This document shows positions 2,261 to 32,880 of a stretch of 33,654 nucleotides of DNA, piece after piece; the stretch's first letter is position 1; each line of letters starts with the position of its first letter. This DNA comes from Chrysochromulina tobinii. Its lineage: Eukaryota. Location of the stretch: assembly GCA_001275005.1 (NCBI GenBank), contig JWZX01002254.1, positions 1 through 33,654 on the forward strand. Direction: 5' to 3'. A program made the translations under genes and the position numbers. The notes below the pieces were generated by a model. The model searched no databases and was not told the DNA's origin. It saw only the letters and a program-made list of their open reading frames with translations.

Positions 2261-4562
2261 TCAGTTGTCGCCCTCGTCCTCATCCCCGTCCTCGTCATGC
2301 CGCCTGAATGGGTTGTGCTCGCTCCAGTACTGCACCCCCATCTCGATGCCCGGCGCCGCAGCCGCCTGCACGCTCGTCAGAGCACGCTGCAGGAGAGACT
2401 GCGGCTTTGGCACCGCGACCGGCTTGACCCTTTGCAGCCGCTTGTGGGGATTGAGGACGGCAAAGACCTTCCCGATCTCGCCCGGCGAGACACAGTTGTC
2501 ACTGTTGCTATCGACGGCACTGAAGAGCGCCTCGAACTGAGAGCGCGCCATCAGAGGAGTAGAGAGCAGCCGCAGCATCCGCTCGCAGCAGCGTGTATCG
2601 AGTGGCAGGTGGTCGAAGCGCGAGTCGAGTTCCACAGGCACCTGATGGGGGAGGCCATCAGCGCTCGTGAGAGAAGCACTCAGAGGCGTTAGAGATGCAA
2701 TCTCATGGCGCGAGCTCAAGCTCCATCGGCACCTCAGCTTCGTCAATCTCATGGCGCGAGCTCAAGCTCCATCGGCACCTCAGCTTCGTCCGAGGGGCGA
2801 GCATCAGGCGCAATCAGGGATCATCAGGCGCAATCAGTGAGCATCGGCACCTCAGCTTCGTCAGAGCCGCGGAAACTGCGTCCGAAACTTGTGCCGCCGC
2901 GGAAGCTGCTGTTCTCGCCGCGGGCGAGGGCCGCAAATGAGAAGCTGCTGTCACCCCCCCTTTTGAAGCTGCTGCTGTCACCCCCCCTTTTGAAGCTGCT
3001 GCCTCCGCCCCCCACCTTGAAGCTGCTCCCATCCCCCGCGCGGAAGGAGGCGCCATGTTGGGCACTTGCGCCCAGGTTGAACGACGTGTCGCTCGGCTCC
3101 TCGTCGAAGTTGACGTCGCTGAAGCGCTCGGCATTGAACCGGAGCACCCGCCACGCCTTGTGGGCGGCCTCGGACCCAATGTGGCCCGGCTCGCGGCACA
3201 GGTACAAGGCACCCACGAGGACGTGGATGTGGCGGTGCGGGAAGTGGTGTTCCCTCAAGATGGCGACGGACTTCCCAATGTACTTTGCTTGCCACCCCGG
3301 GATGAGCGCTCGCAGGTGTGTAGGGAGGGTCACGAGGGGATCCACCTGATGAGGGATGCAATCAAGGAAGGTCATCAGTGAGGTCATCAGGATCCTCAAG
3401 GGGAGGGTCACGAGGGGATCCACCTGATGAGGGACGCAATCAAGGAAGGTCATCAGTGAGGTCATCAGGATCCTCAAGGGGATCCACCTGATGAGGGATG
3501 CAATCAAGGAAGGCTATTCGAGAGGAGACCAGCCATGGAATCGCTGATGACCTTCCTTGAGTGCATCTTTGATTGCATCCCTCATCGGGAGGCCATCCAT
3601 GTCAATCAATGGCAATCCATGGCAATCAGGGGCCATCAGCGCCCATCAGCGACACTCACGTCTTCGGCCCGCTTGATGATCGGAGCAATCAGCGACGAGT
3701 GCACTTTCGCATCGATCGCCTCGCCCAGCATGATAGCGCTCTGAACCCCGTCGTCCAAGCTCATTCCACAGCTCTCGAGCCAGCTCAGCCCAATCCGATC
3801 GCCATCCAACTCCGCTCTGAGCGCCGTGCCGAGCACCGACGACGAGGGCGACTTCTGTTTCAGATAGCGCCGAAGAGGGTTCGCGAAGGATTCGTCACTC
3901 ATGGTCGACTTTCGGACGGTTTGAGCCCACTGACCCTTGAAGGCGAGTAGCCCGTTGATGCCCGTGCTCTTCGCGGCCGCACCGAGCGATTGGAATGCAC
4001 TCTCCTCGATGGCCTCAAGTGGTGACATGAAGTCTTTCGTGCTCATCTCGTCCAGCGCCTTTCGCGCCTCGCACATCACGGCGCAGAACTGAGCAAAGGT
4101 CAGGTCCGACCGGCCTTGCAATGCGGCCTCCTTGAACGGCGCGAGCACCTGATGAGGGTGGCAATCGGATGCGCTCAGTGAGCATCAGGCGCAATCAGAG
4201 AGCATCAGGCGCAATCAGCGAGCATAAGCGAGCATAAGCGGCGCAATCAGCGAGCATAAGCGGCGCAATCAGCGAGCATCGGCAGCGCCCTCACCGGCTC
4301 GCTAAACCCGTGGGGCATGTAAAGGGCCTCAGCCAGGAGGACCAGGAGGTCCGAGAAGGCGGCAGAGTCCACCCCGTGCGCACACATCCACCGGTCGGCA
4401 TTCGAAACCAACTCGGCGGTGGCGAGGTGCTCAGCACGGCGCCCGTGCTGGCTCGAATGGCTGCTCTTGAAAGTTTTGAAATCGAACGGGTTGGCGGGAA
4501 GACGCACGAGCTCGCCGCCACCCAGGGCTGTCCATGCTGCGCGCAGGGGTACGAGGGGATGG

Positions 4563-4605
<43 letters not shown>

Positions 4606-7600
4606 TGCCGCCGCCATCGTTCCTCTCGATGCTGTGACTGACTACTCCACCGACGTTGGCAGTTGCATTCACACTCCCGTCGGGGGCCTCGGGCGCATGG
4701 TGTGAATAGAGCGCCAGCAGAATGCTGAGGATGGCCTCATCATCGTATCCGAGGTCGCGCATCGTGAGCAGCATCGCGCCAGCTTCTGCTCGGCGTGGCA
4801 CGGGCACGATTTGACGAACCTCACGAGGCCGACCGTTCTTGACATTCGTCAGCTCCAGAAAGGCGGTTGAGCAGGCCTCGGCGCTGTTGCGCGCCTTATT
4901 CTTAGGCTTGAGCTTTCGGATCATCGTGACGAATTCGTCAAATTCTACCTTACCGGAGTGGTCGGCGTCCACCTGCCATAACGGGACGCACTCGCAATCA
5001 AGAGGTGCAATCAAGAGGTGCAATCAGCGGGGCAATCAAAAGGTGCCATCAGCGGTGCAATCAAGAGGTGCCATCAGCGGTGCACTCAGTGCACTCAGTG
5101 CAAACAGCAGTGCACTCAGTGCACCTCCTCGAAGAGCCTCTCGACGCGAGATAGCGGCAGATCGTCTCCGAGCAGCGGCAGCAACCGTGCGAACTCACTC
5201 AGCTTCATATCACGATCGAGCACGTCGTTTGTTTCCTTTTTGAGCTCCCCCTTGGCCTCACGCTTCTGCTTGCGCGTCTGTTGGGAGGCTTTCATCTGAC
5301 TGCCTGGCGACGGTCGACCGCCCGTACGGCGCAGCTCGTCCTCGTCCTCGTCGTCCGCACACACAGCGACGAGAACGACCCAAGCCTTGCGGAGCGCGTC
5401 ACGTGATCGGGACAGGTACACCGCATCGACGACTAGCGAGGCTTGCTCATCATCGAAGCCTGCCGTGAGGATGAGATGACCCACAATCAGACCAATCAGA
5501 GGCCATCAGAGGCAATCAGACGCAATCAGAGGATGCGATGGCCCACAATCAGAGGCCATCCAGAGGCCATCCAGAGGCCATGCAGAGGCCATTCAGACAC
5601 AATCAAGAGGAAATCAGAGGCCAATCAGAGACACTCAAGAGGCCCTCAGTGGTACTCACCTGCCGAGCGCAGGCGTGAGATGATCCGGCCCGCAGAAGCA
5701 AGCTGCTCGAGTGTAAGGCGATGGAGGAGCTGTCCACGGAGCACGATGAGCGATTGCAAGGCGGAGAGTGCTAAGCCAAAAGACGATTCTTCGACCGTGC
5801 GCTGCAACGGCAGGGCTCCGAGCACCTCACAGAACTCGCCGAAGTCGAGTTCATCTGATGAGGGAGGCGATCCGAGGCGCTCAGTGGCTGATGAGGGAGG
5901 CCATCAGAGATGATGAGGGAGGCGATCCAATCCGAGGCGCTCAGAGGCTGATGAGGGAGGCAATCAGAGATGATGAGGGAGGCAATCCAATCCGAGGCGC
6001 TCAGAGAGCATCCTACGTGAAATCAAAGAGCATCCGGCGTATTCAGAGAGTATCATCAGGCGTAATCACGGATCGTCAGATGATAGCACACCGTTGCCGT
6101 CCTGGTCGAAGACGGAGAAGAGCTGATCCGCCTCAGCTGCCGTCAGCCCCATCCCGCCAGTGATCAGACCGAGCACCGACTTCCAGTCGGACTTGCCGAG
6201 CACCCCCTTCTCACCCGCCGGCACAAAGACGCTCCATGCCGCGAGGAGCCGTTGGCGGGTCCCATGGAGGAGTCCAAGCACCACGTCACGCGCCTGGGCG
6301 GTCGTGTAGATGGTCGCACCCAATCAGAGGCCATTAGGGGCAATTAGGGGCAATTAGAGGCCATCCGAGGCCTTTCGAAGCCATCGGAGGTCATTAGAGG
6401 CAATTAGGGGCAATTAAAGGCAATTAGAGGCAATCAGAGGCCATTCGAAGCCATCGGAGGTCATTACCTGGGCGGTCTTGTAGCCAGCTGAAGCCATTGT
6501 GCGCGCGATGCCCGCCGCACGCTGCCGCGCGTCCCACTCAAGCCCGTACTCGCGTGCCACCTGTTCACCCAGAAGCCATCATGCGTCATCAGTCATCTTA
6601 GGTCATCAGAGGGTCATCAGAGGGTCATCAGAGGGTCATCAGAGGGTCATCAGAGGAAATGAACACACCTGTTCGACCCACGGAAACTCCGCGCCCGGGC
6701 GCAGCCGTGCATGCAACCTCGAATCGGCTGTGCTTTGCCGGAGGAGGCCCGGCCCCGAGGGCACAGCTGCGTGTCCTTTTCGGGTGCCGTTATAATGGTC
6801 CGCTGCAGCCATGGCTGTTGGTGAAACCAGGTGTGAGTGGCACTGAGTGGTGGTGGCAATCAGTCGCAATCAGTGGCGATCACGAGCACTCACCTGCCCG
6901 TTGGTCAAACCAGGTGTTGAGAAGGGTCTCCCAACGCCCCGCTTCACAAAGCCGTTCTTGCCTCTCCTCGACGAGCAGAGCTGAGACCGCGTCTGCGTGC
7001 AACGTGCGGGAAAGCATCTGCAGCGTGCGTAGATGACTGGCCTCGCCCGTCCCATCGGGCGCCGTCTCGAGCGCCACCTGCCTATTTTGTAGCGCCGTCT
7101 CGAGCGCCGTCTCGAGCGCCGTCTCGAGCTCCAAATCTCCCGCGGCGACGCCAACGGTCGAGCCGTTGGCAGCCGCCTCCGCGAGCGCGAGTGCCTCGGA
7201 GAGCCCACGAAGACGCTCGGGTCGCTCGACCCTGATGAAGCACGCAATCAGAGCCACTCAGGTGGGCCGTCACGAGGCACTCGGCGGCCATCACGAGGCA
7301 CTCGGCCGGCGTCCATCACGAGGCACTCTAGATGGCCGCATGTACAGCCATTCATAGCGCGCATGTGGCTCATCAATGGCAATCAAAGGCAATCAAAGGC
7401 AATCGAAGGCAATCAAAGGCAATCAAAGGCAATCAATGGCAATCCATGGCAATACGTACAGCCAAACGTAGCGCGCATGCGTCTCATCCTGCTCAGGGTT
7501 GAGCGACGTGCCCGGAAGCATGACGGGTGGGGCCAGCACCGCCGCGTCCGCACGCGCCCGTTGCTCTATCCCGAAGAGCATCCTTCGCGCCTCCCGTAAC

Positions 7601-8487
7601 CTCTCCCCGGCCGCCCTGGAATTCGCAGCAGCACCCTTCGCGCTATCGAACAAGGGTCGCCTCTCGACGACTGCCTGCCGAACGCCGGTCGCAATCTCGT
7701 GCAGGTCGAGCTTCCCGTCGCCATCTGCGTCCAGAGCTTCCCACAGCGACGACACGTCCCTTTTTGAGGACGAAGTTGACGAAGTTGACGAATTCATGGC
7801 CTGGCTGAGCGATTGGCGCACGCGGAGCAGCTCGCGCGAGTATCCAGTAAAGAGGCCGACTTGGTCGTCCGCCCCTGTCCTCGGGCCGGCCGCCATCAGC
7901 ACCTCGTTGTACAAGCTGTACGTGTCGTCGGACGAGACACCTGCTGCTGAGGCCGTGGAGCCGCCATCGCCGCCGCTCACTATGAGCAGTCGCATTTCGC
8001 GCAGCTTCTCAAGGTTGCCCATCGCCTGCCACCCCGCGTCGTCCTCGTTGAGCTCGACAAACGACGGCCGCCGACCCAGGCGCCCGGCGAGCGTACTCTC
8101 GGCGGTTCGCGCCGCGGCGATCGCCGCCCTCCAGCGCAACCGGAAGAAGTGTGGCAGTGTCGCGTCGTCGCCGCCATCCGTCTGCATGAGCTCCGTCAGG
8201 TAGCCCTCGAGTAACGAGACCTTGCTGCTGCGAGCTGGCGCCTTGCTGGAATGCGCCTGCTCAACCTGCGCTGCTGCCGCCGTACCGCCCGCGTCGAGTC
8301 GGATAAGTGCGGTGCTGCTCCCCATGCCACGTGCCTCGAACAGCGCTGACAGGGCTCGCGAGGTCTGCTCTTCGATGGATGCGCTGCCGTGATCGGAAAC
8401 GCGGAGTATGGCCGACGACTTCTTCGACGATTGTCGAGCGCGCTCGCGCTCGAGAGCACGGGCGCGTCGCTGCACGGTGGCCGACAT
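2261..8487 (-). CDS. Large multi-EF-hand calcium-binding protein, 11 predicted exons, ~1459 aa
   Basis: Predicted exons (minus strand): 8487-7460, 7231-6894, 6814-6669, 6560-6468, 6293-6092, 5854-5660, 5459-5125, 4972-4295, 4148-3660, 3345-2851, 2641-2261. All introns are GT-AG and phases are consistent (4380 nt). EF loops: DADGDGKLDLHE, DQDGNDELDFGE (formed only after splicing), DADHSGKVEFDE, DSNSDNCVSPGE. The ORF-track start at 8598 is TTG, so the ATG at 8487 is preferred. Confidence 0.82.
2698..2789 (-). repeat. Two tandem 46-bp intronic copies resembling the exon10/exon11 junction
   Basis: The unit is repeated at 2698-2743 and 2744-2789. The minus strand reads gacgaagctgag-gtgccgatggagcttgagctcgcgcc. 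Confidence 0.85.
3324..3513 (-). repeat. Three tandem acceptor cassettes (TTGATTGCRTCCCTCATCAG|GTGGATCCCC) in intron 9
   Basis: The AGs end at 3488, 3424 and 3346. They are followed by ~10 nt, ~22 nt and the full exon 10 start, respectively. Confidence 0.85.
7372..7453 (-). repeat. Intronic 10-bp minisatellite, (TTTGATTGCC)n-like on the sense strand
   Basis: About 8 units of ggcaatcaaa/ggcaatcaat on the plus strand, inside intron 7459-7232. Confidence 0.9.
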
Positions 8488-8760: not shown

Positions 8761-11700
8761 ATGCTCGTCCCGGACGGCCCCGTGGTCTTCGTGCTCGGCG
8801 GCCCAGGCAGCGGGAAGGGCACGCAGTGCGCCAAGCTCGTTGAGCGGTACGGAGCGGCGCACTTCTCAGCGGGCGACCTGCTGCGCGCGGAGGCGAAGAA
8901 GGGTACCGAGCAGGGCAAGATGATCGACGAGATGATAAAGCAGGGGGCGCTCGTGCCTACGCAGATCACTCTCGACCTGCTCAAGGCGGCGATCAAGTCC
9001 CGCAAGGGGCCCTACCTGATCGACGGCTTCCCGCGCTCGCTTGACAATCTGCAAGCCTTTGACAACCAGGTGTACGGTGGGTGTGCCCTAACGCTGGTTT
9101 ACGACCTGTCGGAGGCGGCCATGGAAGAGCGCCTTTTGAAGCACGGCGAGACGTCGGGCCGAGCCGACGACAACGCCGCCACCATCAAGAAGCGTTTCAA
9201 GACCTTTTGGGATGAGTCGATGCCGGTGATCGACATCCTTCGAGCACGCAAGGGGGGCCTGATGGTGTCGACCATCGACGCGTCCCGGACGCCCCAAGAG
9301 GTGGCGATCGATACCTGGCGCGTGTTCGACAAGATCGCAAACGTGATCAACATGCTCGTCCCGGACGGCCCCGTGGTCTTCATGCTCGGCGCCCCTGGCA
9401 CGGGTAAGGGCGCGCAGTGCGCTAAGCTCGTCGAGCGATACGGCGCTGCACACATTAAAGTGAGTGACCTGCTGCGCGCGGAGGTGAAGAAGGGTACCGA
9501 GCAGGGCAAGATGATCGATGAGATCATGAAGGAACATGACGTAGTCCCCGCTCCAATCACTCTCGACCTGCTCAAGGCGGCGATCAAGACCCGCAAGGGG
9601 CCATACATTATCGACGGCTTCCCGCGCTCGCTTGACAATCTGCATGCCTTTGACGACCAGGTGTACGGGGGCCATCGAGGCTTTGGGTGTGCACTCGCGA
9701 TCTTTTACTTCATGGCGGATGCGGAGATTGCGGTAAAGCGGAAGCTGGAGAGGAATCAAACGCAAAAGAAAGGCATCCAAGATCTCGACGAGCACGCCGA
9801 AGAGCTCAGGAAGAAATTCCACAAGTTCAAGGGGCAGTGTATGCCGGTGATCGAGAAACTGAAAAATCGCGGCTTGCTCGCGACCGTCGACGGGCACCCC
9901 TCTTTCAATGCCGTGTTCACCGCCACCTGCAAGGCCTTCGATAAGGTGGCCGCCCCTCTCGTGACGTGGCGAAAGGCCCAGGTGACCGAATACCTCGCGA
10001 AGCATGCCATGAAGGAGCGGCTCGAGGCGGCCTTGCATGCGGCCGTTGGCTCCCAGGCGCCCGACCCGGCCAGTTTTGTCGCGGAGTGCATCGCACCCCC
10101 GGGCCCGCGCCGCCCACGAACCGCGTGCGGCACGTTCTTGCGTATTGTCACCGTGAACGACGTGTACAAGCTCGACAACTACCCCCGCGTCGCGAGCGCG
10201 GTCGCCGCCGCTAAGAAAGCGGCCGCGGCCCTCGACTGTGTAGTGATCTCAACCTTGCCAGGTGATGAGCGCTGACGACCTCCGATGACCCCCGATGGCC
10301 TCTGATGACCTCTGATGACCTCTGATGACTCGACTCTGTGTGGTGATCTCGACCTTGGCAGGTGACTTCTTGTCTCCGTGCCCTCTCACCGCTCTCGACG
10401 GCGGGCGGGCGATGACCGAGGGGCTCAACAAGGCTAAGATCGAATACGTCATGCTCGGCAACCACGAGCTTGACTATGGCTTCCAGTGGTCCGTGGATCG
10501 CATGCAAGCCTTCAAGGGCAAGGTGGGCCATGATTGCCTTGACTGCGATTGCTCTCGATCTGTCACTGAGGGGCTGCGCGTGCTCGATGCTCTGATGGCT
10601 CTGATGGCTCTGATGGCTCTGATGGCTCTGAGGGGCTGCGCGTGCTCGATGCTCGATGACCTTCTCTTGACGACTTACTCTCGTGCTCGATGCGCGATGC
10701 GGCAGTGCATCAACTCGAACATCACGACGAAGCCAATCGACACGTTCCCCAAGTACGCCGCCATTCCACGTGTGGGTTGATGACCTCTGAGGACCGCTGA
10801 TTGCGTCTCTCATGAGGGCTTGATGACCTCTGAGGACTACTGATTGCGTCTCTCATGATGGCTTGAGGACCTTTGAGGACCCTGATTACGTCTCTCCTCT
10901 CACAAGTGCGTCCATGATGACCTCTGGGGACCTCTGATGACCTCTGATTGCTTCCTCTCATAGGTACGACGTGATCCACGTGGGCGACCGAAGGGTGCTC
11001 ATGACCGCCTTCCTCTCGGCGGATACCTCCATCTACGCCCCGGCCAACACACCTACGGTCATCCCGCCCGCCGAGGCAGCGGTGGCGATTTGGAACGAAG
11101 CCAAGGAGGCCTTGGGGTACACCCCAGACGTGCACCTGCCCATGACGCACCAACTGGTGCCCGAAGACAAGGCCTTCTGCCTCGCGCTCGCCAAGCACAA
11201 GGAGCTGGGCCCACGCACGCCTATCGTACTGGGCGCGCACGAGCACGAGGTATACATTGACTCGTGTGGTGGTGCAAAGATCATCAAGACGGGCGCCGAT
11301 GCTGAAGAGATTGGATACGTTGATATTTGGTGGGGGACCGATGGCGTGATGCACTCAAAGGTAGAGCTGGTGCCCGGCTGTGAATTTGACGAGGAGCCTG
11401 AGGCGAAGAAGTTCTGCCTGGAGCAGGAGGACTTTGTTCGGCGGGTGATGTCCGCACCGCTGATGCCAATCCCGGCGTTCATGAGCTCCAAGACGGTGCG
11501 CCACTCGCCTTCTGGGGTGGAGATGATGACCTCTCTGATGACCACTGATTTCCTCCCTCATCAGGTGCGCCACTCGCCTTCTGGGGTGGCCACGCTACTC
11601 CTCACCCAAATGCTGCGTGGATTCCGAAAAGAGAAAGTGGAGCTGTGCGTGGTCCACGGCGGCAGTGTGCGCGCTGGCAAGGAGTATCAGGCCAATACGA

Positions 11701-12326
11701 CCTTTACGATGGGCGATCTCTTCGCGGAGTTCGCATTTGATGGACCTATGGCGGTGATCTTGGTCAAGGGCTCGATCCTTCAAGCATCCACGGCCAACAC
11801 GCGCAACGCTCCCAAGCCCGCGCCCGACTTCCTCCACTTTGATGAAGGAGTCGTCATCGAGCCCGAGAAGCATGCCATCCTCTCTGTTGGGGGCGTTCCC
11901 TTCGACCCCGAGAAGATGTACAAGATTGCGATCAACCAGCTGCTGCTCACCGGGCTCAACGTGATCGAGCCTCTGATGAGCTACGTGCGCGCCAACGTCA
12001 AGGTGCCCACCGAAGAGAGTTGCCGCCTGAGCAAGAACGTGGTCATCGAGGTCTCCATGAAGGACGTCTGGCGCCACCTGATCGACTTCCAGTCTTTTGA
12101 TGAGGACGGGAACGGAGCGATCGAGGACGCGGAGTTGCGCGCGGGGATCAAGAAGTTCTTCGCGCAGGTGGCGAGCCGACCAGAAGGAATCTCCGTCGAG
12201 GAGGTGGCCGCCCTCATCAAGAAGAAGCAAGGGCACCTCTCCCTCGTCGAGCAGCTCGTCAAGACGCTGGACACCAACGGCGACGGCTACATCGACGAGG
12301 AAGAGATGCTTGCGTTGTCCCACTGA
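8761..12326 (+). CDS. Fusion protein: two adenylate/UMP-CMP kinase domains + Dpy-30/RIIa-like motif + 5'-nucleotidase (metallophosphoesterase and C-terminal domain) + EF-hands, 5 exons, ~1000 aa
   Basis: Predicted exons 8761-10261, 10362-10522, 10706-10752, 10964-11495, 11565-12326 (3003 nt, phases consistent). P-loops GGPGSGKGTQ and GAPGTGKGAQ; DGFPR twice; EYLAKH...LEAAL...PDPASFVAE; NDVY, GDFLSP, GNHELD, MTH, GAHEH, GGSVR; EF loops DEDGNGAIEDAE and DTNGDGYIDEEE. Confidence 0.88.
11496..11564 (+). mobile_element. Candidate young introner-like intron: perfect 25-bp duplication plus a 44-nt insert supplying the acceptor
   Basis: gtgcgccactcgccttctggggtgg is identical at 11496-11520 and 11565-11589. 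The insert is agatgatgacctctctgatgaccactgatttcctccctcatcag. The mobile-element interpretation is inference. Confidence 0.55.
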
Positions 12327-13824: not shown

Positions 13825-13909
13825 CGTGCCCGCGCCCGTCACAGCGCCCGTCATGCGCCTGTCCCTTTGCGCCTACGCCTTGGATTTCGTCATCATCGCC
13901 GCGTCATGA

Positions 13910-16654
13910 TCATCGCTTCTTCTTGCGCTTCGTCTCCTTGCCTTTGGCGCCCTTGTTGATGAAGATCTTCATCGCCCTCTTCTTGAGCGCCTCGCGATCG
14001 AGCACCTGGTTCAGCGGGTCATCGGCAGCTCCCTCCTCGTCGCCCTCCTCGCCCTCGTCGCCTTCCTCCTCGTCGTCCTCGTCCCCGGGCACCTTGAACT
14101 CCTTCGCAGACGCGCCCGCCGCCATCAGCAGCGGAGCGAGCGCCTCCGCCGACTCCATCCCATCGCGGGCCACCAGTCCCCGCCCCTTGAGAGCGGCGAC
14201 CAAGCTCATACGGTACTCCTCTCCCGTCATCACTGGCGAGGGTGCCCCAGGCGCCGTACTGGGCGAGAAGGGGGACCTCTCATCAGGCGCCGTACTGGGC
14301 GCAGGCGGCTCCGTCACCACCGCCAGTCCGCCCTCAGCCTCTTCACCGTCGGCGTCGCCCGGGACGGCGCCTTCGGCGTCGGCCGGTCTGGCACTGCCCT
14401 CTGCCGCTTCGGAACTGCCAGCCGCCTCGTCGGCGGCATTGGACAGCGCCGCCGCCGCCACCGCCGCCGCCACCGCCGCCACCGCCGCCTCCTCCTCCTC
14501 CTCCGCCGCCTCCGCCTCCGCCACCGTCGCCGTCGCCGTCGCGTTCGCCGGCAGCGCCGTCCTGTGCGCCGGCAGCGCCGCCTTCCCGATGAGCTCGCGG
14601 AGCAGCCCGAGGCTCTCCTCGAGCGCCTCGACGGTCAAGTGGTCCTGGCTCCTCTCCGCCTCCAGCGCGCCCGGGACGGCGCCGGGTCGGGCGCCGTGTC
14701 GAGCGCCCTTGAGGGCCATCTGCGCCGTCGTGGGCGTCGAGCCCTCCTTCGCGGGCGTCGTCCCGGGCGTGCCGAAGGCCTGCTGCACCGCGCTCTCGGC
14801 GGAGCGCTTCGCCTTCACCTTGCCTGGAGAGGGCGAGGCCTCGGGCAGCATCAGGTCAGCACGGGAGTCGAGCACGGCGGCGGTTTCGCCACTCAAATCT
14901 CCCGCCTTGAGCAGCCCCGTCGGAGGCGGGACTGAGGGCGGATGCAGGATCATGAGCCCCAGCGCGAGATCGCTGGCGTGCTGCTGCCGACCGCCCTTAC
15001 GCCAGACGCCCGTCCCTTTGCCCTCAGTGCCCGAGACGGCGCCCGCGAGCGGCGCGGCGCCGCGGAGCCCCTTGGCAGTGTGGAGCATGCGGCTGAGCTG
15101 CGCTACAGCGGCGTGGGCGTGCTGCATGATGGCCGCCGTGCGCTTCGCTCGTGAACGAGCCGCGCGCAGCTGGCGCTGCTGCTCGAGGCGAGACTCCTCG
15201 CCCTGGCCCTGTGGGGATTGGGCGCGCGCTGTGGTGAGCGCTTGCATGCAGGGCAGGTAACATCAGTGGCAATCAACGTACCTGGCCCTGTGGGGATTGG
15301 GGGCGCCCTGTGGGGATCGGCGGCGAGCCGGCGCGGTTATCGGACGTGTAACGGAGCTGCAGCAGCTTCTTCTTGCGCTCGTGAAACCTGAGGACGGGCG
15401 CCCGATACGGCGCGCGATCAGAGCTCCTCGGCGGCAATCAGAGGTCCATCAGCGCACTCCTTGGAGAGCAATCAGAAGCTCATCAGAGGTCCATCAGAGG
15501 TCCATCAGAGGTCCATCAGCGGTCCTTCAGAGGTCCATCAGAGGTCCATCAGCGTACTCCTTGGAGAGCAGCTCGATCGACCTGGTCGCCTGTCGATGGA
15601 GGTTGGCTAGCAGAGCGAAGGTCTCCTCCTGCGCCTTGAACTTCTCAACGATCAGGTCAGCTTCCGAGGTGCCCATCACCTGGCGCGAAGAAGGGCGCAC
15701 ACTTCTTATTAGTCGTCATCCAATGGGTACTCAGAGGTCATCCGAGGCACTCAGAGGTCATCCGAGGCACTCAGAGATCATCAGAGGTCATCAGAGGTCA
15801 TCCGTGGCACTCAGAAAGCACTCTGCGCGCCCTCAGCCACCCTCAGCGCACCTCCGCAATCAAGAGCCATCACGAGTCATCACGCGCCATCACGCGCCCT
15901 CACGCGCCCTCACGCGCCCTCAGCGCACCTCCGCTATCGAGTCGAAGATGAGCTGGAGCTTGGCGATGCGATCTCGCTCATCGTCGAGCGAGCCGACGGA
16001 TGTGAGGTGCTCGTTGCGAGAGAGCGCGTCCAGCCGCTCCGCCTCCAGAGCACGCAGCTTCTCCGCCGTGCGTGTCGCGTGATCCGCCGCGGCCTGCTGC
16101 CGGGCCTGCAGCTTGTCGCGCTTGGCCTGTAGCTTCTCCGCCTGCGCGGCGAGCTCGAACGAGAGTGTCTTATCCTGACGGAAGAGCTCTGCCTCGGCCG
16201 CGTTGCGCACGTCCGTCGCGTCCTTGAGCATCAGGTACAGCTTCTTCGCGTCCGCCTGCTTCGCGCTCGATTGGAAGTCGATCTCGTTCAGGTCGCGCCG
16301 GTAGGTCTTCTCCTCGCTGCGGATGCGCTCGATCATCAGCCCGTAGGTGCTATGGTCGTGGTTGGCCACATCAATCTCCGCCTCGACGTCCGCGAGCTCC
16401 GCCTCGAGCTCCGCGACCTCCGCCGCGTCCTCGTTGGCGCCAGCCGACAAGTCTGCCGACTTTGTGAAGCCGCTGGTACGCTCGACCATCTGGTGGAGCT
16501 TTTGCCGCAGCGTGATGCACTCGGCAGTGATCTCATCGTGCCGCTTGCGCAGCTTCGTCGCCTCCGCGTTCAGCGCCCTCAACGCCACCTCCGGCTCGGG
16601 CTCCGGCTTCAACTCCGTGCTCATGGCGCAGAAACCCGAACCGCCAGCGTCCAT
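13910..16654 (-). CDS. Coiled-coil protein resembling outer dynein arm docking complex subunits (ODAD1/ODAD3-like), 4 exons
   Basis: Predicted exons 16654 (or 16624)-15929, 15679-15558, 15387-15282, 15202-13910, phases consistent. The spliced product reads ...KLQLIFDSIAEVMGTSEADLIVEKFKAQEETFALL...KKKLLQLRYT, which resembles the docking-complex family as I recall it. Low-complexity acidic/basic C-terminus. Confidence 0.72.
15203..15281 (-). mobile_element. Family A introner-like intron (79 nt) with a perfect 20-bp duplication supplying the acceptor AG
   Basis: Sense sequence gtacgttgattgccactgatgttacctgccctgcatgcaagcgctcaccacagcgcgcg + cccaatccccacagggccag. The last 20 nt are identical to the upstream exon end (15282-15301). 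The core matches introns 31025-31098 and 32151-32229. Confidence 0.65.
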
Positions 16655-16788: not shown

Positions 16789-18255
16789 ATGAGCGCTGCG
16801 TTGCGTGCGTGCCAGAGAGTCGCGATGATCGATGCCACCGCGCCGGATGGCACGCGTCTGCACCTCTCCGCGCATTCAGTGAGCGGTTACAAGGGCGTGT
16901 TCGAGTCTGCGGGACGCTACCAGGCTCAAGTGCGCGTCGGTGGCAAACAAAAATACATTGGCATCTTTCCGACGAAGATGGAGGCCGCGATCGCCGTCGC
17001 GCGCGCCATAGGCGAGCCATCGGATGATCCCGATGCCGATCTTGCGACGGCGACGGACGTTCGCGACGGAGGCCATGGCGCGGCCACGGAGGACGCAGAC
17101 ATGGCCGAGGCCGAGGCAGACATGGCCGAGGCAGGGGACGCTGGAAGTGGGCCCCAGGTGGAGGTCACATCGACCAAGGTGGAGGTCACATCGACCAAGG
17201 TAGACGACGACGACGACGACCAGGGCGGCTCGTCCATCGGTCCGTACTCGGCCGAAGTGGTCGGGCAGATGCGCGGGCCGGAGCTACGCCGGGCGGTGCG
17301 CGGCGCCTTGACCGAGTCGGGCAAGACGCAGACTGCCTTCGCCATCGCGCTTGGTGTGAACCCCGCCTACCTGTCCCAGTGGCTGAACCAGAACTGGTAC
17401 GGGCACACGCATGGCAGGCCCAAGGTGGAGAGATTCATCGAGGGGAGGGTGCGCGCGTACCTTCGCGGCGGGGCCCTCGAGCCCGTGCATGCATGCATGG
17501 GGCCGCCGGCACCTGGCGGCGCCACCAGCAGTGCGCCCACCCAGCCCATGCATGCATGCAAACATGCACAAGGCGGCGCCACCAGCAGTGCGCCCGCCCA
17601 ACCCATGGAACGGCGGCGCCAGCCTAGGGCGACGTCGACGGCAGCGACGGGTGACGCGGCATTGCGCCAACGACTCTTTTCGAATCTGGTAGACGAGGTG
17701 CAAGGCGGGAGCTCGTCGACTGATGACCTCTGATGATCCTTGATGACACTTGATGACACTTGATTGCATCCCTCATCGGGTGCGAGGCGGGAGCTCGTCG
17801 ACTGATGACCTCTGATGATCCATGATTGCATCCCTCATCAGGTGCAAGGCAGGAGCTCGACAAGCACGAATGGTGGTGCGAGCGGCGGTGCGAGCGGCAG
17901 GGACGGCGGAGGAGGAGGAGGCCGCCATCATCGGGCCCTGAGCGCCGTCCTGAGCGTCGAACGGCCCGTCGCGTCGCCAGAGTCGATCGCGGCAGCGGAG
18001 CGAGCGAAACGGGACGCGCTCATGGAGGGCTTAGCCTTCGAACCAGACCGCAAGGGCCCCACTGGGTTGCTCGGGGTGCGGGCACGCGGTGCGGGCGACG
18101 CGCTGCGGTATACGGCCACGATCACCTGGATCACTGGACGGCTGAAGCGCAAGGCTCGTGTGCTGGGCACCTCCTTCCTGGCGGCCGAGGAGGCGGCGCT
18201 CTCCATCGCTCGTGCGCGGAAGGCCCTCAAGACGGGACAAATGCTGCCCTTTTGA
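16789..18255 (+). CDS. AP2-domain DNA-binding protein with a central Cro/C1-type HTH and a second AP2-like domain, 2 exons, ~440 aa
   Basis: Predicted exons 16789-17697 and 17842-18255. AP2: SGYKGVFESAGRYQAQVRVGGKQKYIGIFPTKMEAAIAVAR. HTH: TQTAFAIALGVNPAYLSQWLN. Second AP2-like domain: TGLLGVR...RYTATI...LGTSFLAAEEAALSIAR. Start codon uncertain (16657, 16789 or 16825). Confidence 0.82.
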
Positions 18256-21744: not shown

Positions 21745-21800
<56 letters not shown>

Positions 21801-22862
21801 GAAGATAGCGTTGTACCAGCGCAGCATGGCACCAGTGGCGGCACCAGAGGCGGTGAGCGCGCCGTCTGTGACAGTGCTGGGGAGCTTCATCGCCGAGCGC
21901 CAAAGGAGCTCGTGAGGGAGTTCGCGCGAGAGCTCGTCGTAGAGCCAGCGCAAACGTGGCGGGCCCTCTCGCTGCAGGAGCCACCAGACAAGGCGACCGT
22001 GCAGGCAGAGGCACACGAGGGCGAGCAACATTATGACGGAACTGAAGCCTAAGAAGTAACTGTCTGCATGATTCGCGTACCACGTTTGCAGAATGGTGGG
22101 AGCGCGCGGTGGTGAAGGTGGCGGCCTTGGTGGCATCGGCGGCGGCCGCGGTGGTGACGGCGGGCTCGGCTGCGGCGGCGGCGGAGGTGGAGGCCTTGGT
22201 GGCATCGGCGGCTGCCGCGGTGGTGGCGGCGGGCTCGGCAGCGGCGGCTTTGGAGGTGGAAGCGGCGACGGCGGCGGCGGCGGCGGGTCTGGCGGTGGAT
22301 GTGGCAAAGGCGGCGGTGGTGGTGATGGAGGCGATGGAGGTGGCGGTGGGTCTGGCGGTGGATGCGGCGACGGCGGCGGCGGAGGGGAAGGTGGCGCTGG
22401 AGGTGAAGGCGGTGGCGATGATGGAGGTGGCGGAAGCGGTGGTGGTGGAGACGGAGATGGCCTCGGTGGTGGAGGTGACGGCTGCGGCGGCGGCGGCGGC
22501 GGAGGAGGAGGAGGTGACGGGGGTAGTGGCGGCGGTTCCGGGCTGGGCGGTGGCGGTGGAGCGAATGGCGGCGATGGAGGCGGCAGCGGCGTGCACGAGC
22601 AGCACTGGCTGGCGGGTATGATGGGTCCGTAGACGTAATGCTGAACAGCTTGAGTGAGCACGATGCCGATCAGCAAACCTCCGACGGCTCCGGACCCCGC
22701 TCCTGACCACCAGCTTGTGCTCTGCCGCTTCTGGCTGGCTTGCTCTTTCAGGTAGTCGGCCGGCTTGTCCAGGGTCAGCAGCGATTTCCCCTTGGACAGC
22801 CGCCGGTCACTGCGCTCCACGCTCGTCGGCAGTAGTGGTGAGGCGTCGGAGCGCGGCGCCAT
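18756..22862 (-). CDS. Large intronless proline-rich membrane protein (~1368 aa): two predicted TM helices flanking a poly-Pro/SPPP segment, then a coiled coil and a low-complexity tail
   Basis: Uninterrupted 4.1-kb ORF. Hydrophobic segments GAVGGLLIGIVLTQAV and YFLGFSSVIMLLALVCLCL flank ~160 aa of P/S repeats; an E/K-rich helical region follows. ATG 22862 is preferred over 23069. Confidence 0.8.
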
Positions 22863-23164
22863 CGCCCTTCTGGCTCGCGCTCCTGGGCCTGCTCGCGGGA
22901 GTGGACTGGTCGGGTGAGCCTCTCCTTCGCTGCGCTGAAAAAAAGAGTGTCGCACAAGCGGTTTCGCGTTTTTGGATGCGACGCGATGTGGCCTACCAAA
23001 ATTAGATGCCGAAGAATGTAAGGTGTCTCGCCGCCTCCTTTTCGCGCACACGCAGACTTGTAACTGCATTTGGCTCGTACTCGCACTCGATCGATCGATT
23101 CATTCCACCGCAGGAAACCTCCGTGGGAAAATCATGAGTACGAAGCGTGCGAGCGCAGCCCGCA

Positions 23165-24322
23165 ATGAGCCTTGGCACCATTAGCTCGGTTTCACCGTCC
23201 GAATCCAAGGGGCTGACATCTGCGACCCTGGAGGAAACGCAGTCTATTGCCGCGGATGCGGCACAGACGCCCAAGCCGATCTTCGACGATGTGGCGCTCC
23301 TGGCGCTCCGCCGCAACGATAAGTTGACCTTTATAAAGCTGCTCGACGAGCGGGCCGGTTTGCACAGCGCAGTCGACCCGCACCAAGGGGCAACGCCGGC
23401 GCATTGGGCGGCATACGAGGGCTATGTGAGCATACTCGAGGAACTCTTCGCGCGCGACGGGCGCATGGACGGGCGAGCGAACAACACGGGTATGACACCG
23501 CTCCACTGGGCCTGCAATCAGGGGCACCTGCAGGTGGCGATGTTCCTGGTCGAGGTCGCGGGGTGCTCGGCGGACTCGTGCGACGGGACGGGTGCGACGC
23601 CGCTCATGCTCGCGGCGCAGCACAATTGGCCGCGCCTCGTCTTTTGGCTCAACCAGCGCGCGCCTGACACCCTCCGGGCCGTCGACCGCGACGGCGACAC
23701 GGCTCTGCACTGGGCGAGCTACAAGGGGTCACTCGCATGTGTGACGCTGCTGTGCGAGTTTGGCCTGACGCCGCTCACGCAGGACAAGCACGGTGCGACC
23801 GCGCTGCACCTGGCCGTCGGCCGTAACCAGGAACCGACGGTGCGTTGGCTGCTTCAGCATGCCCAGTCTGATGCAATGCTGGCGGCCGTGGACAATAAAG
23901 GTCGCACCCCGTTGATGATCGCGGAGGAGAAGGGGCTCGAGATGATGCACTGGCTGTGCACGGAGGGGCGGCTCGACAAGCGCGCAGTCCCTGTGCAGTT
24001 GCTTCACCGCAACGCGTTCACCGCCTACGCGAACGCCAACCACTTCATCTCTCGCGTCTCCTGTGAAGGCATGAGCAAGGCCATCCAGCTGCGAGAGAAG
24101 ATGTACGGCGGGGCGACGCCCCGGTCGGTGGAGATGACGCCTCGGGCCCCGTCCTCCGATGCACGCGAACCGGGGGGGGCGACGCCGGAGGGGGGGGCGG
24201 CGCCGGAGGGGGGGGCGACGCCGGCGCCCACGCAGGCGGCTGCGCCAGTTCAGCCCGCGGCAGAGGAGGAGGCGGAGGCGACGGGAGCACCGGTCGCCCC
24301 GAAGCCGGCCGAGATCGAGTGA
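23165..24322 (+). CDS. Ankyrin repeat protein (about 6 repeats), intronless
   Basis: GATPAHWAA, GMTPLHWAC, GATPLMLAA, GDTALHWAS, GATALHLAV and GRTPLMIA at ~33-aa spacing. Confidence 0.92.
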   Translation: MSLGTISSVSPSESKGLTSATLEETQSIAADAAQTPKPIFDDVALLALRRNDKLTFIKLLDERAGLHSAVDPHQGATPAHWAAYEGYVSILEELFARDGRMDGRANNTGMTPLHWACNQGHLQVAMFLVEVAGCSADSCDGTGATPLMLAAQHNWPRLVFWLNQRAPDTLRAVDRDGDTALHWASYKGSLACVTLLCEFGLTPLTQDKHGATALHLAVGRNQEPTVRWLLQHAQSDAMLAAVDNKGRTPLMIAEEKGLEMMHWLCTEGRLDKRAVPVQLLHRNAFTAYANANHFISRVSCEGMSKAIQLREKMYGGATPRSVEMTPRAPSSDAREPGGATPEGGAAPEGGATPAPTQAAAPVQPAAEEEAEATGAPVAPKPAEIE

Positions 24323-27626: not shown

Positions 27627-27789
27627 GCGAGCACGCGGATCGGCGATGTGCAGTACCTGTGGGGAAATGGCGCCGTGGTGAGCACATGCATGCTGAGCGA
27701 GCACGCGGATCGGCGATGTGCAGTACCTGTGGGGAGAGGGCGCCGTGGTGAGCACATGCATGCTGAGCGAGCACGCGGATCGGCGATGT
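27627..27789 (-). repeat. 70-bp tandem repeat (2.3 copies) containing the family A intron core and an acceptor-like end
   Basis: Units start at 27627, 27697 and 27767. The minus strand reads gcatgcatgtgctcaccacggcgcc...tccccacag|gtactgcacatcgccgatccgcgtgctcgc. Confidence 0.85.
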
Positions 27790-28918: not shown

Positions 28919-29174
28919 TCAGCTCTAGGCGAAACCCAGGGCGGACGGAAGATAGCGGAAAACACACCACGAGATGCGTTTTTTGCCTCCGGGATACGGT
29001 GTGGAAACAGACCTCCTCCCAGTGCATAAATGAAAGATTCGGGCTCATTCGTCAATTCGAAAAACAAGTCATGAAACTTATTGGCTCGATTTGGACTCAC
29101 CTGTGTGGAAGCGTCCAGACTATCGCGGTGTCGCCCCGTGCTACAGGCTGGGCGCTTGGCCACGGACTGGCGAG

Positions 29175-32100
29175 ATGTTCAAAGAATTCGACAAGGACGG
29201 CGACGGGAATGTCACCGTTGGCGAGGTTTTTCAGGGCGTATTTACCAAGATATCTGACCTTTTTACCAAGGAGACGAGGGAAGAGTACAAGAAGCGCATA
29301 TTTCAGCGAGCGGCGAGTGCGCTCCGGCACTCGCAGGAGGTCAGGGCGTGGAGCACGTGGGTCGACTCTATGCGCCAGCGGGCTGAAAACATGCGCGTGA
29401 TACGGAAGTGCGTGCTCGGCTTCATGTTTGCCAAGCAGCGAGCGTGCATTGAGTGCTGGCACGACGAGGCGATGGCCCGTGGCGAGGCGAAGTTGCGCGC
29501 TCAGAAAGCCTTGGCGCGGTTTAAGCATAACAACGAGAGCCGCGCCATCAATCACTGGGTCTTCATCTACAGGGAGGACAAGGCCGCGCGCCAGCGGCTC
29601 AAGAGCCTGATGTCACGCGTCTCCCCCGAAGGGCAGGCGAAGTTGAAGGTGCTTGATATCTTGCGTGCGATGCACGCCAAAGCGCTGCTGTTCCGCAAGG
29701 CTGCGATGGCGCTCTTGAACAGCCAGCTGTTCCGAGCGTACAATGCGTGGCACGAGCTGGCGGAGGACAACAAGCGAACCGCGGAGAAGATTCGGCGGGT
29801 ACTCGTGCGCCTCGACCCGGTGTGCATGCTGATGGCCTCCTGATTACTCGTGCGCCTCGACCCGGTGTGCATGCTGATGACCTCCTGATGACCTCTGATG
29901 ACCTTTGATGACCTCTGATGACTCGTGCGCCTCGACCCGGTGTGCATGCTGATGACCTCCTGATGACCTCTGATGACCTTTGATGACCTCTGAGTACTCG
30001 TGCGCCTCGACCCGGTGTGCATGCTGATGGCCTCCTGATGGCCTTTGTGTGACCTCCGAGTGACCTCCGATGGCCTCTGAGTGACCTCCGATGGCCTCTG
30101 ACGGCCTCTGGTGACCTCTGACGGCCTCTTGATGACCTCTGAGTGCCCTCTGATGGCCTTTGATGGCCTCTGATGGCCTCTGAGTGCCCTCTGAGTGACC
30201 CTTGATGACACCTGATGACCTCTGGTGGCCTCTGGTGGCCTCTGGTGGCCTCTGGTGGCCTCTGATGGCCTCTGATGGCCTCCCACACCAGGTGATGCGG
30301 AGCATGCTCAAGGTGATCGAGCGGCTCAGCATGCACGCGCAGCAAGTACACCAGTTGGAGTTCGCCGCGCGCGCCCTGCTGAACGCGGCGCCGAAGCGGG
30401 CGTTCCTCACATGGGCGGGTAGGCGAGAGCAAGTGATCGCACAGCGGCGGGCGGTGGTTTGGCTCGCCGTGCAACGCGGCCATCGCGTGGGCACCTTGCA
30501 AGAGATGTTTGAGGAGATCCGCGAGATTTCGGCCGTTGATGACTTGCTGCAGGTGAGTGCTAATGACCTCTGATGACCTCTGATGACCTCTGATGACCTC
30601 TGATGACCTCTGATGACCTCTGATGACCTCTGATGACCTCTGATGACCTCTGATGACCTCTGATGACTTCGGCCGTTGACGACTTGCTGCAGATGACAGA
30701 CGAGCTCGGGATGACGCCGCTCCTCTGGGCGTCCAAACGGGGATTCGCTGACATTGTCGAGGTGCGCGCGCCGAGGTGGGGCCTTGAGATATGGGGTTTG
30801 CAGGCGCTTTACCCTCTCCCACCCTCTCCCCACATCTCCCCACATCTCCCCACATCTCCCCACATCTCCCCACATCTCCCCACATCTCCCCTGTCCTCAG
30901 GTCCTCTTGACCTTCGCCGGCGACGTGCAGGCCGTCATCAGCGCTCGCGATGCTGAGGGCTCCACGCCGCTGCACCACGCCGCCCGCCGCCACCACAACG
31001 ACATCGTCGCCATGCTGATCGAAGGTACGTTGATTGCATGCGGATGGCCTGCCTTGCATGCAAGTGCTCACCACAGCGCGGCGCCCTGCTGATCGAAGCC
31101 GGCGTCAACGTGCACCAACCCAACGACGATCAGTCGACCGCGCTGCACTGGGCGGCTCGCAAGAACAATGCGCTTGCCATCCGCATGCTGATTGCAGCTG
31201 GCGCGGACCCGCATTGCAAGAACAAGTGGGGGGCGACGGCTCTCGAGAATGCGCAGTTTGGGGACAATCTGGAGGCGGTCTGTCTGCTCGCGAGGGACGA
31301 GGCCACTCGCAAGCAGGCCGAGGAGGAGCTCCAGCTCCAGCGCAAGCTTCGGTGCGATTGATTGAGATTGAGATTGAGATTGAGATTGAGATTGAGATTG
31401 AGATTAAGTAGCAGGCCGATGAAGAGCTCCAGCGCCAGCGCCAGCTTCGGTGCGTCAACTGAGGGCCACCGAGTGCCACGGATGGCCACTGATGGCCACT
31501 GATGACCGCGGGTGATCACATGTAATTGCCGCTGATGAGCACTGATGAGCGCTGATGAGCGCTGAAGAGCAACCCATTGCGCCCCTCATCAGGCCGACAA
31601 GCTCGGAGCTCTGATGACCTCTGATGACCTCTGACGACGCGATTGATTGCCTCCCTCATCAGACCGACAAGCTCGGAGCTCTGATGACCTCTGATGACCT
31701 CTGACGACGCGATTGATTGCCTCCCTCATCAGGCCGACAAGCTCGGAGCTGGCCGCCAGGCTGAGTGAGGCCGCGGGCTACGCCATCGAGCAGCGTGAGA
31801 AGAATCGGATGCGCATTCGAGGGCTGCACGACGCACGGGCCGCCATGGATGCCGCGGCCCAGGAGCAGGCGCGTTGATTGCTCACTGATGGCTCACTGAT
31901 TGCTATTGATTGCTATTGATTGCTCTTGATTGCGGCCCAGGAGCAGGCGCGTTGATTGCTCACTGATGGCTCACTGATTGCTATTGATTGCTATTGATTG
32001 CGGCCCAGGAGCAGGCGCGTTGATTGCTCACTGATGGCTCACTGATTGCTATTGATTGCTATTGATTGCGGCCCAGGAGCAGGCGCGTTGATTGCTCACT

Positions 32101-32880
32101 GATGGCTCACTGATTGCTATTGATTGCTATTGATTGCGGCCCAGGAGCAGGCGCGTTGATTGCTCACTGATGACCACCTGCCTTGCATGCAAGTGCTCAC
32201 CTACAGCGCGTTCGGCTCTTGTGGAGCAGGCTCGAGCTCAGAAGCGACAGCGTCTCGCCTTCAGTGCCCTCGCAAAGGCGGTGCAGGCATCCTCGAAGGC
32301 TCCCGCCAGGGCTTCGGCTGCTGCCGCCAAGGGTTGGGGCGTCAGCGTCAGCCGTCCCGGGCGTATCGGCGGCGACAGCAGCAGCATTTGGCTCGCGTGC
32401 ACAGCTGAAGAGTTGTCCACACTCGAGCGCTGCGTGGCCGAAGCGGCTGCGGCCGTGGAGGAGGCAGGTGATTTTGCCATGCTCATGGTCCAAGAGCGCC
32501 TAGCTGAGGGACAGGCGCGATTGGAGCAGTTACGTTCGCTCGCCGCCTCCGCCGCCGCCGCCGGCGCCGGCACGCCGTATCCCTCCGAGGACACGTTTGA
32601 CGCCTCGGGGGGGGCGGGCACGCCCACGCCCACCTCCGAGGAGTTTGCCTCGCCGACGAAGCACGCTGCCTCGCCTTTTGAAAGCGAGTCGACGACTCCT
32701 TCCCCATCATCCCGCTCGCCCACCTCCCATCGCATGTCCCACCGGCACCAAGGTGGCGAAGGCACCAAGGAATCCCCCATGGAGCGCCAGCTGCGCAAGG
32801 CGAAGCTCGCGGGCAAGAAGAGGAGCGGCTCGCCACGTAAGTCCACCAGCAAGTCCACCAGCCCCAGCAAGTCGCGCTGA
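29175..32880 (+). CDS. EF-hand + Sfi1-like (centrin-binding-type) Trp repeats + ankyrin repeat protein, 7 exons, ~712 aa
   Basis: Predicted exons 29175-29819, 30292-30552, 30693-30761, 30901-31024, 31099-31351, 31733-31868, 32230-32880. The last intron is GC-AG and phases are consistent. EF loop DKDGDGNVTVGE; RAxxxW motifs, the first three Trp 33 aa apart; ankyrins GMTPLLWAS, GSTPLHHAA, QSTALHWAA, GATALENA. The 5' end is uncertain. Confidence 0.8.
29801..30029 (+). repeat. Four copies of the exon1-end/5' splice site (actcgtgcgcctcgacccg|gtgtgcatgctgatg) separated by TGATGACCTC units
   Basis: Copies start at 29801 (the real donor), 29846, 29921 and 29996. Confidence 0.9.
30561..30667 (+). repeat. 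Perfect intronic (TGATGACCTC)n array
   Basis: Nine exact units at 30571-30660, plus one variant and one partial flanking unit. Confidence 0.97.
30831..30890 (+). repeat. Intronic (CACATCTCCC)6 array
   Basis: Six exact 10-bp units directly before the acceptor ctgtcctcag (30900). Confidence 0.95.
31025..31098 (+). mobile_element. Family A introner-like intron (74 nt) with a 17-bp duplication (1 mismatch) supplying the acceptor AG
   Basis: gtacgttgattgcatgcggatggcctgccttgcatgcaagtgctcaccacagcgcgg + cgccctgctgatcgaag, versus the exon end cgccatgctgatcgaag. Removing it restores the ankyrin sequence MLIEAGVNVH. Confidence 0.65.
31361..31402 (+). repeat. (ATTGAG)7 intronic microsatellite
   Basis: Seven exact units shortly after the donor at 31352. 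Confidence 0.93.
31573..31750 (+). repeat. Three tandem acceptor cassettes, 70-bp period
   Basis: ccctcatcag|(g/a)ccgacaagctcggagct, with AGs ending at 31592, 31662 and 31732. Confidence 0.9.
31854..32229 (+). repeat. Five tandem copies of the exon-end + GC donor unit (68-78 bp period), ending in a family A core
   Basis: gcggcccaggagcag|gcgcgttgattgctcactgatg starts at 31854, 31932, 32000, 32068 and 32136. The last copy continues cctgccttgcatgcaagtgctcacctacagcgcg...ggagcag. Confidence 0.9.

Follow-up and report, generated by a model that had tools for sequence, protein, structure and literature searches.

The DNA analyzed here, called the window throughout, is a stretch of 33,654 nucleotides (nt) from Chrysochromulina tobinii (contig JWZX01002254.1). 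It is GC-rich eukaryotic DNA in which 24 introns were rebuilt in five genes, labeled A to E, and these introns are the subject of the analysis. In six of them one splice site is supplied by a duplicate of the neighboring exon end while the remainder is foreign filler, and three of the six (B4, E2 and E4) are recent intron gains. Gene A (2261..8487, minus strand, ten introns, A1-A10) encodes an EF-hand-containing protein of 1459 amino acids (aa), one exon of which matches EF-hand. Gene B (8761..12326, plus strand, four introns, B1-B4) encodes a 1000-aa protein that combines two adenylate kinase regions, a 5'-nucleotidase and an EF-hand. Gene C (13910..16624, minus strand, three introns, C1-C3) encodes a coiled-coil-like protein of 740 aa without a Pfam match, gene D (16825..18255, plus strand, one intron, D1) a protein of 428 aa, and gene E (29175..32880, plus strand, six introns, E1-E6) an ankyrin-repeat protein of 712 aa. 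All five spliced frames are free of internal stops. A preliminary description, made from the letters of the sequence, had reconstructed 24 introns in five genes and listed 11 of their intervals; 11/11 of those intervals start with GT and end in AG.

The six clean introns fall into two mirror geometries. In geometry (i) the intron opens with the insert and closes with a copy of the upstream exon end, whose AG serves as the acceptor. This arrangement is seen in A4 (6294..6467, minus strand, 15/16 positions matching), B1 (10262..10361, plus strand, 23/26), E2 (30553..30692, plus strand, 26/28) and E4 (31025..31098, plus strand, a family-2 insert followed by a copy scored from 16/17 to 18/20). In geometry (ii) the intron opens with a copy of the downstream exon start, whose GT serves as the donor, and closes with the insert. 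B4 (11496..11564, plus strand) has a 25/25 copy at 11496-11520 followed by a 44-nt family-1 3' half, and D1 (17698..17841, plus strand, 17/18) has two tandem units and is based on its reading frame. The clean duplications vary in length from 16 to 28 nt, in line with the long variable duplications and paired geometries proposed earlier. All six introns combine foreign filler with a one-sided copy, and in B4, E2 and E4 the foreign insert measures 44-112 nt and brings one splice site.

Exact support from RNA or transcript-derived protein exists for 10 of the 24 introns (B1-B4 and E1-E6). Spliced gene B matches the protein P0076 (1000 aa) at 998/1000 positions without a gap across B1-B4, and RNA contigs skip B4 in 3/3 RNA runs. 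In gene E, RNA contigs join across E1 (3/4 runs), E2 (4/4), E3 (4/4), E4 (3/4) and E6 (3/4), and splicing of E5 is deduced from 36 letters that separate two pieces of one RNA contig. In E4 and E6 the RNA takes the AG of the exon copy, not an earlier AG within the family-2 core. For genes A, C and D the RNA support consists of piece ends, the listing of joints being dominated by repeat joints; piece ends coincide with the predictions for A6 (5458) and C1 (15926). The RNA joints and the P0076 match bear out the claim that these segments are spliced out. B4 is 69 nt long and has no in-frame stop, and the public protein KOO30275.1 equals spliced gene B plus 23 residues, which correspond to B4 kept in the model. 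The junction given earlier for C3 as 15281-15203 is probably displaced: the sole RNA contig (depth 5) ends at 15207, where an acceptor at 15209 predicts 15207 and one at 15203 predicts 15201.

Exon-end copies and insert families

Exon-end copies were evaluated in two ways. In the first, the 45-nt exon flank was searched anywhere in the intron, with 1104 swapped intron/flank pairs as the null; in the second, ungapped copies ending exactly at a splice site were scored, with 552 pairs per end as the null. A copy of the intron's own exon end occurs somewhere in the intron in 15/24 cases at p<=0.005. Anchored copies occur in 6/24 introns, with scores of 14-25 against null maxima of 7 and 10, so that this control comparison, of a kind already suggested in the preliminary description, places the terminal copies of six introns far above the null. 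The earlier estimate that about 18 of 24 introns carry an exon copy holds, with 19 by a lenient count and 15 by statistical significance, and the idea that the copy donates a splice site is clear in 6 and extends to at most 12 of 24.

Weaker terminal copies, which are short, gapped or shifted, are present in six more introns. A3 (6561..6668, minus strand), A6 (5460..5659, minus strand) and E6 (31869..32229, plus strand, GC-AG) have terminal copies of 6-7 nt (p 0.004-0.009); the A3 copy is diverged and reads 11/12 with a gap, and the A6 copy is 6/6. B3 (10753..10963, plus strand) is a diverged geometry (ii) intron with a terminal copy of 7/8, or 16/20 with a gap. A2 (6815..6893, minus strand) has a 17/18 copy close to its 3' end from which 4 nt before the AG are missing, and C3 (15209..15281, minus strand) has a family-2 insert and a 20-nt exon-end copy (to 15203) with the acceptor, as the RNA suggests, probably at the first AG within the copy. 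Among the geometry (i) copies, two older ones (A4 and B1) go back to an exon end with an internal AG, and both have lost that AG (2/2); the C3 copy keeps its internal AG and appears to use it. Both outcomes are expected if selection tidies the copy.

Eight introns have internal copies. They comprise A1 (7232..7459, minus strand, 24/29 plus the donor, based on the frame), A9 (3346..3659, minus strand, exon-start copies of 11 and 23 nt in tandem units), A10 (2642..2850, minus strand, copies spanning both exon ends), C1 (15680..15928, minus strand, a short copy across the donor that is not significant unanchored, p=0.17), C2 (15388..15557, minus strand, 13 exon nt plus 21 intron nt), E1 (29820..30291, plus strand, three copies across the donor), E5 (31352..31732, plus strand, a 36/40 exon-end copy and 18-nt exon-start copies) and E6, which is counted in both sets and has four 68-nt units across the donor, a family-2 core and its 7-nt terminal copy. 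In all eight the copies extend 5-59 nt into the adjoining intron sequence. Such copies are tandem duplications of the ordinary kind that span a splice site already in place, and they are read as later events. A single system for 18 introns, as first proposed, therefore does not hold, and A10, which had been assigned to geometry (ii), matches over 5 nt only at its start. Two phenomena are present, namely rare intron-creating events and commoner later duplications. Five introns show no copy: A5 (5855..6091, minus strand) and A8 (4149..4294, minus strand, no significant copy), both with a family-1 3' end, A7 (4973..5124, minus strand), B2 (10523..10705, plus strand) and E3 (30762..30900, plus strand), which has a different repeat.

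Several further features lie beside the catalogue. In a sixth, unmodelled gene absent from the earlier list (27627..27789, minus strand), two tandem units each consist of a copy of about 30 nt and a family-2 3' half. An in-frame 12-mer repeat with an acceptor-like end at 7078-7135 (minus strand), which many other contigs match, is a possible additional intron and was kept out of the 24. The gene B stop codon overlaps a short motif (12323-12349) that resembles an intron and has an acceptor-like end, and RNA contigs read through it. In E5, a 6-mer microsatellite (31357-31405) is the filler between the 40-nt exon copy and its original, so fillers need not belong to the 10-mer family. Long intron-free genes (18756-22860, 23153-24322 and 1006-1785) stand next to genes that contain 3-10 introns, which makes intron gain look clustered by gene.

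Two families of filler were defined. Family 1 consists of degenerate 9-11-mers in an array that closes with an acceptor of about 20 nt, and these last ~20 nt are conserved in 13/13 aligned introns from four sources (the window and the loci L004, L009 and L017 described below). Family 2 has a defined 5' start in E4, C3 and E6 and a core common to 6/6 aligned places. Copies have no end-to-end similarity, the mean column identity being 57-60% and the arrays varying in length and unit; the inserts, described earlier as shared, are so only at the level of motifs. The insert in geometry (ii) is a 3' half, and in geometry (i) it is a 5' part that ends short of any usable acceptor of its own. The last 7 nt of family 1 are the reverse complement of the repeat unit, but in a test for hairpins or terminal inverted repeats 5/6 inserts fold no better than shuffles, and the half inserts have no paired terminus. 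Rfam gave 0 matches. Haptophyte introns are rich in 10-11-bp repeats, a property that the literature searches did not return.

Repeat clusters are confined to introns (29/29, with 28 in sense), and none lies in 6,600 non-genic bases of the window, where the gene bounds outside the five genes are rough. Motif hits within introns number 139 in sense and 2 in antisense. The sole antisense cluster (3545-3576) is an inverted copy of A9's own family-1 3' half, nested in A9. DNA depth in repeat-bearing bins reaches about 900x that of single-copy bins, a measure of genome-wide abundance and not of copy number. One candidate was set aside: 14248-14301, considered as an antisense mini-insert, is an unspliced 18-nt perfect repeat in gene C coding sequence whose spacer resembles the family-1 end on the opposite strand, and P0113 (83% identical) shares the repeat with a different spacer, so the resemblance is probably chance.

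These properties bear on whether the inserts are copies of a dedicated non-autonomous element, SINE-like (short interspersed nuclear element) or HUH-mobilized, that makes variable duplications independently of splicing. The defined 5' end and core of family 2 in E4, C3 and E6 fit such an element, and Replitron-1 makes variable duplications, with one Replitron protein reported from C. tobinii (PMC10288648). Hallmarks of Replitrons are short terminal direct repeats, a fuzzy end taken from the parent copy and an HUH transposase. The mirror geometries arise from both families, however, and the inserts have neither a fixed length nor a poly(A) tail nor copies outside introns. No A tail was found in the 24 introns, and no terminal direct repeat or fixed element length was noticed in the family-1 and family-2 alignments. 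An element of this kind is decidedly improbable.

Empty sites and the age of the introns

Close relatives are represented by predicted proteins 96-98% identical to those of the window, and the counts below refer to the 15 of 30 and 15 of 28 cluster members listed. These proteins were predicted from genomic contigs, as is evident from their reading out of introns or running through them. B3 is common to relatives, 8 of the 15 listed reading out of it. B4 is empty in 12/12 informative members, with 3 uninformative, and since 8 of the B4-empty members read out of B3, they are genomic and not transcripts. E4 is empty in 10/10 informative members, with 5 uninformative, and E1, E3 and E5 are present, as shown by read-through. 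Of the 13 members informative for E2, 12 lack it and 1 has it, with 2 uninformative. The empty alleles carry a single copy of the duplicated peptide. Three proteins without B4 (P0072, P0076 and P0046) were rejected as empty-site evidence because they may be transcripts.

More distant homologues agree with this polarity. L003 and L004, from a metagenome scan that returned 12 loci, each align as a single piece along the whole of protein B (71% identity), and P0112 (775 aa, on a 19-kb contig) crosses the gene E intron sites uninterrupted. Empty close relatives together with uninterrupted distant genomic homologues indicate gains and not losses. B4, E2 and E4 are therefore recent intron gains, as the preliminary description had supposed, and E2 is polymorphic for presence and absence. 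B1 is present in the listed close relatives, whose open reading frames end in it, and is therefore older; it is absent from L003, L004 and L009. Near-perfect terminal copies mark the unshared introns, while the shared ones have diverged or internal copies or none, which bears out the proposed age series.

The scan also provides cases outside the window. L009, a homologue 50-59% identical, is empty at B1-B4 and has its own 89-nt intron (L009:8825-8913) nine codons upstream of the B4 site, consisting of a 22-nt perfect exon-start copy, repeats and a family-1 end; the window is empty at that site. Duplication-type gain thus recurs in another lineage. A second L009 intron (L009:5789-5877), with a 13-nt copy, looks like another case. 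At L004:3219-3467 nested events occupy one site with a copy of about 40 nt. Relative to L003 and the window, L004 has extra adenylate-kinase repeats upstream (L004:7172-8923). The short loci L005-L008 and L010-L012 may be transcripts and were excluded from the empty-site evidence. L002 was rejected as a relative since it is the window's own sequence, and L013 as a chimeric fragment. In motif scans of viral contigs, L014-L016, L018 and L019 were read as chance matches, L001 is a chimeric-looking contig end with a family-2 core, and one scan had no matches. A scan of prokaryote genomes returned one algal contig, L017, inside a bacterial metagenome-assembled genome (MAG) record, which is likely contamination. 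It carries a full-length family-1 intron flanked merely by CAG|GT, without a long duplication.

The same data address an assembly artefact, or old introns whose ends were remodeled by slippage. In its favor, assembly is difficult across long runs of 10-mers and arrays of 68-75-nt units. An independent DNA contig over 10602-13745 is nevertheless identical to the window, the B4 insert is carried by five proteins (one of them the public model of the same contig), the E2 start is found in P0101, and relatives have empty sites. The explanation is already largely refuted and can be regarded as extremely improbable.

Origin of the inserts

The reading that we tentatively favor, at somewhat less than an even chance, is that the inserts are made in one step, in which half of an existing intron, probably with its RNA as the template, is copied into a staggered break that lies in a transcribed gene. 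The anatomy of the introns, their splicing, the empty single-copy sites and the recurrence in a second lineage are observed, and the steps that follow are a proposal. A single event would yield the insert and the duplication together. The template would be a piece of another intron of the 10-mer repeat family, joined precisely at its own splice site, with the precise end being the 3' end at AG in geometry (ii) and the 5' end at GT in geometry (i), and the other end cut variably within the repeats. The second strand would be cut 15-30 nt away, and fill-in would then produce the duplication. Coupling of the event to transcription or splicing would fix the orientation, and it could take the form of half a reverse-splicing reaction or of target-primed reverse transcription of an excised intron at an R-loop. 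Selection would retain insertions whose duplicate supplies the missing GT or AG and would later purge competing AGs from the copy.

The distribution of repeats is the main argument for such coupling. In a calculation by hand, GT makes up 4.3% and AG 7.0% of exon positions, half of the events have the right orientation, and only GT- or AG-bounded sense events survive in exons; if insertion were random, the three proven gains by themselves would then imply about 40 or more copies outside genes. With 29/29 clusters intronic and 28 in sense, this expectation favors a process tied to transcription or splicing over random repair, and random staggered-break repair, a form of one of the routes named earlier, is not supported as the likely cause, with 0/29 clusters outside introns. 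A precise splice-site end, a ragged end and a long variable duplication fit a template of intron RNA that is attached by one of its ends while copying starts at a second nick.

The main rival is templated by DNA. In break repair or fork template switching of the polymerase theta or microhomology-mediated break-induced replication (MMBIR) type, a nascent strand would copy part of a repeat array elsewhere and re-anneal 15-30 nt back, and selection alone would give the orientation and the fit to splice sites. Tandem duplications across a splice site in eight introns, the inverted copy in A9 and the nested events at one L004 site are what this process would leave, and the one-sided repeat geometry is also found in new introns of Daphnia (PMC4202315). 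Set against this are the lack of any of the 29 repeat clusters outside introns and two negative tests: junctions show no more microhomology than chance would give (a mean of 1.29 nt vs 1.03 nt, P=0.18, over 14 events), and the repeat motif is not enriched at target sites (3/24 vs a 17% background, by a crude periodicity test). DNA templating is somewhat unlikely, although a serious competitor given that these introns also contain local duplications, both tandem and inverted.

A history in three steps would reach the same end product if an introner with a short duplication inserted, a tandem duplication then crossed one of its splice sites, and the original intron was lost exactly, leaving the copy and a half element. 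The intermediate after two steps exists in A9, E5, 27627-27789 and L004, a full-length family-1 intron with only CAG|GT flanks exists in L017, and marine Chrysochromulina introners with 4-bp duplications are described (PMC9860276). All three steps would nonetheless be needed at each of B4, E2, E4 and the L009 site within very short times, and the listed relatives are either empty or have the finished form. Such a history is improbable.

Within the favored one-step copying of half an intron, a more specific form, which is itself unlikely, is half reverse-splicing. The spliceosome would attach an excised intron by one of its ends to the DNA strand that is displaced in a transcribed gene. With a cut in the opposite strand 15-30 nt away, reverse transcription and fill-in would then give copy, half intron and copy. 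If this were true, each geometry would record one of the two splicing steps in reverse, and these traces would still be polymorphic among lake populations.

Several points weigh against the account given here. The clean cases are just 6/24, and the empty sites were read from protein sequences and not from DNA. A7 is retained in one low-depth RNA contig. Spliced at 15209, C3 seems to keep 6 duplicated bases in frame in its mRNA, so that the exact restoration of the coding sequence claimed earlier does not extend to every case; a protein search for this retention gave one match, a protein that begins only downstream of it. Neither a reverse transcriptase nor a nuclease nor a donor intron was identified in these data, which are on the scale of the window. 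Selection, or deletion in a compact genome, could be the reason why intergenic copies are missing, and the local tandem and inverted duplications in A9, E5 and E6 indicate that template switching on DNA operates at these same places.

The case bears on the question of where new introns come from. It offers a cultured alga with ongoing, polymorphic intron gain, in which the footprint (a long variable duplication, a half-intron insert, sense orientation only and genes only) separates candidate mechanisms. Each intron combines a copy specific to its locus with a variable repeat, and screens based on similarity can therefore miss it, as the 0 families listed for C. tobinii illustrate. Gene models can miss such introns too, as KOO30275.1 does.

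Comparison with known systems of intron gain

Introners are the closest known system. Family 5 introners of Chrysochromulina sp. TARA_PON_109 are described with a 4-nt duplication, no terminal inverted repeat (TIR) and a co-opted 3' site (Gozashti 2022, PMC9860276), and 98% of the introners in that MAG are given as lying in genes (PMC9860276). Introner classes of Polarella and Symbiodinium have fixed duplications of 3-8 nt (bioRxiv 10.1101/2020.10.14.339549), and Micromonas IE1, according to a review, carries one splice site and co-opts the other from the target duplication (PMC11282704). In a 2025 introner survey the haptophyte rows give duplications of 2-5 nt, C. tobinii is entered with 0 families, and about 72% of the catalogued families are without an assigned mechanism (PMC12130899). 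Of the 5 Emiliania families in that survey, one is entered in its table with '10bp terminal direct repeats' and a co-opted 5' site, and by that entry may be a partial precedent (PMC12130899). Repeats of 4-30 bp are reported close to the borders of 213 mixed introns (PMC11782384), and an average of one intron per gene is reported (PMC4580454).

Other routes match in part. New introns of Daphnia pulex, attributed to staggered double-strand-break repair, have repeats of 4-12 bp (33 cases) and AT-rich inserts mostly of unknown source (Li 2014, PMC4202315). They resemble the present introns in the far-end repeat of one exon's terminal bases, in secondary internal repeats and in being polymorphic in populations, and differ in that here the repeats are 16-28 nt and the inserts come from shared intron families in sense only. 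Tandem genomic duplication of AGGT, as reviewed in PMC3443670, likewise lets a duplicated exon give a splice signal and restores the coding sequence, but there, as described, the whole intron is duplicated exon with both sites from AGGT, whereas here a foreign insert gives one site. Reverse splicing into R-loop DNA (PMC10996645, PMC3443670) predicts sense-only intron copies inside genes, as seen here, but whole introns without duplication instead of half introns with long duplications, and the route is unproven in DNA.

Target-primed insertion of long or short interspersed nuclear elements (LINE/SINE) gives a variable duplication with one precise and one truncated end. The geometry (ii) introns B4, D1 and that of L009 share these features; they differ in having no A tail and in that 28/29 clusters are in sense instead of both orientations.

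Like introners, the introns described here are recent, related, multi-copy, exactly spliced and strongly biased to genes, with one site from the insert and one from the duplicate. They show family relatedness at unrelated loci, empty orthologous sites (B4, E2 and E4; L003, L004 and L009) and splicing from mRNA. In the Chrysochromulina introner family no clear inverted ends are described. Their duplications are 16-28 nt and variable (22 nt in L009), in contrast to fixed short duplications of 2-8 nt, and their inserts are variable half introns in both geometries, without end-to-end similarity. The distinct route proposed in the preliminary description thus has the geometry of known introners and differs in duplication length and half-element inserts. 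In the literature searched, with subscription journals outside its scope, no description was found of long variable duplications with half-intron inserts in haptophytes. This is ongoing intron gain that works like a splice-site-co-opting introner, but its duplications are not fixed and short and its copies are not similar from end to end.

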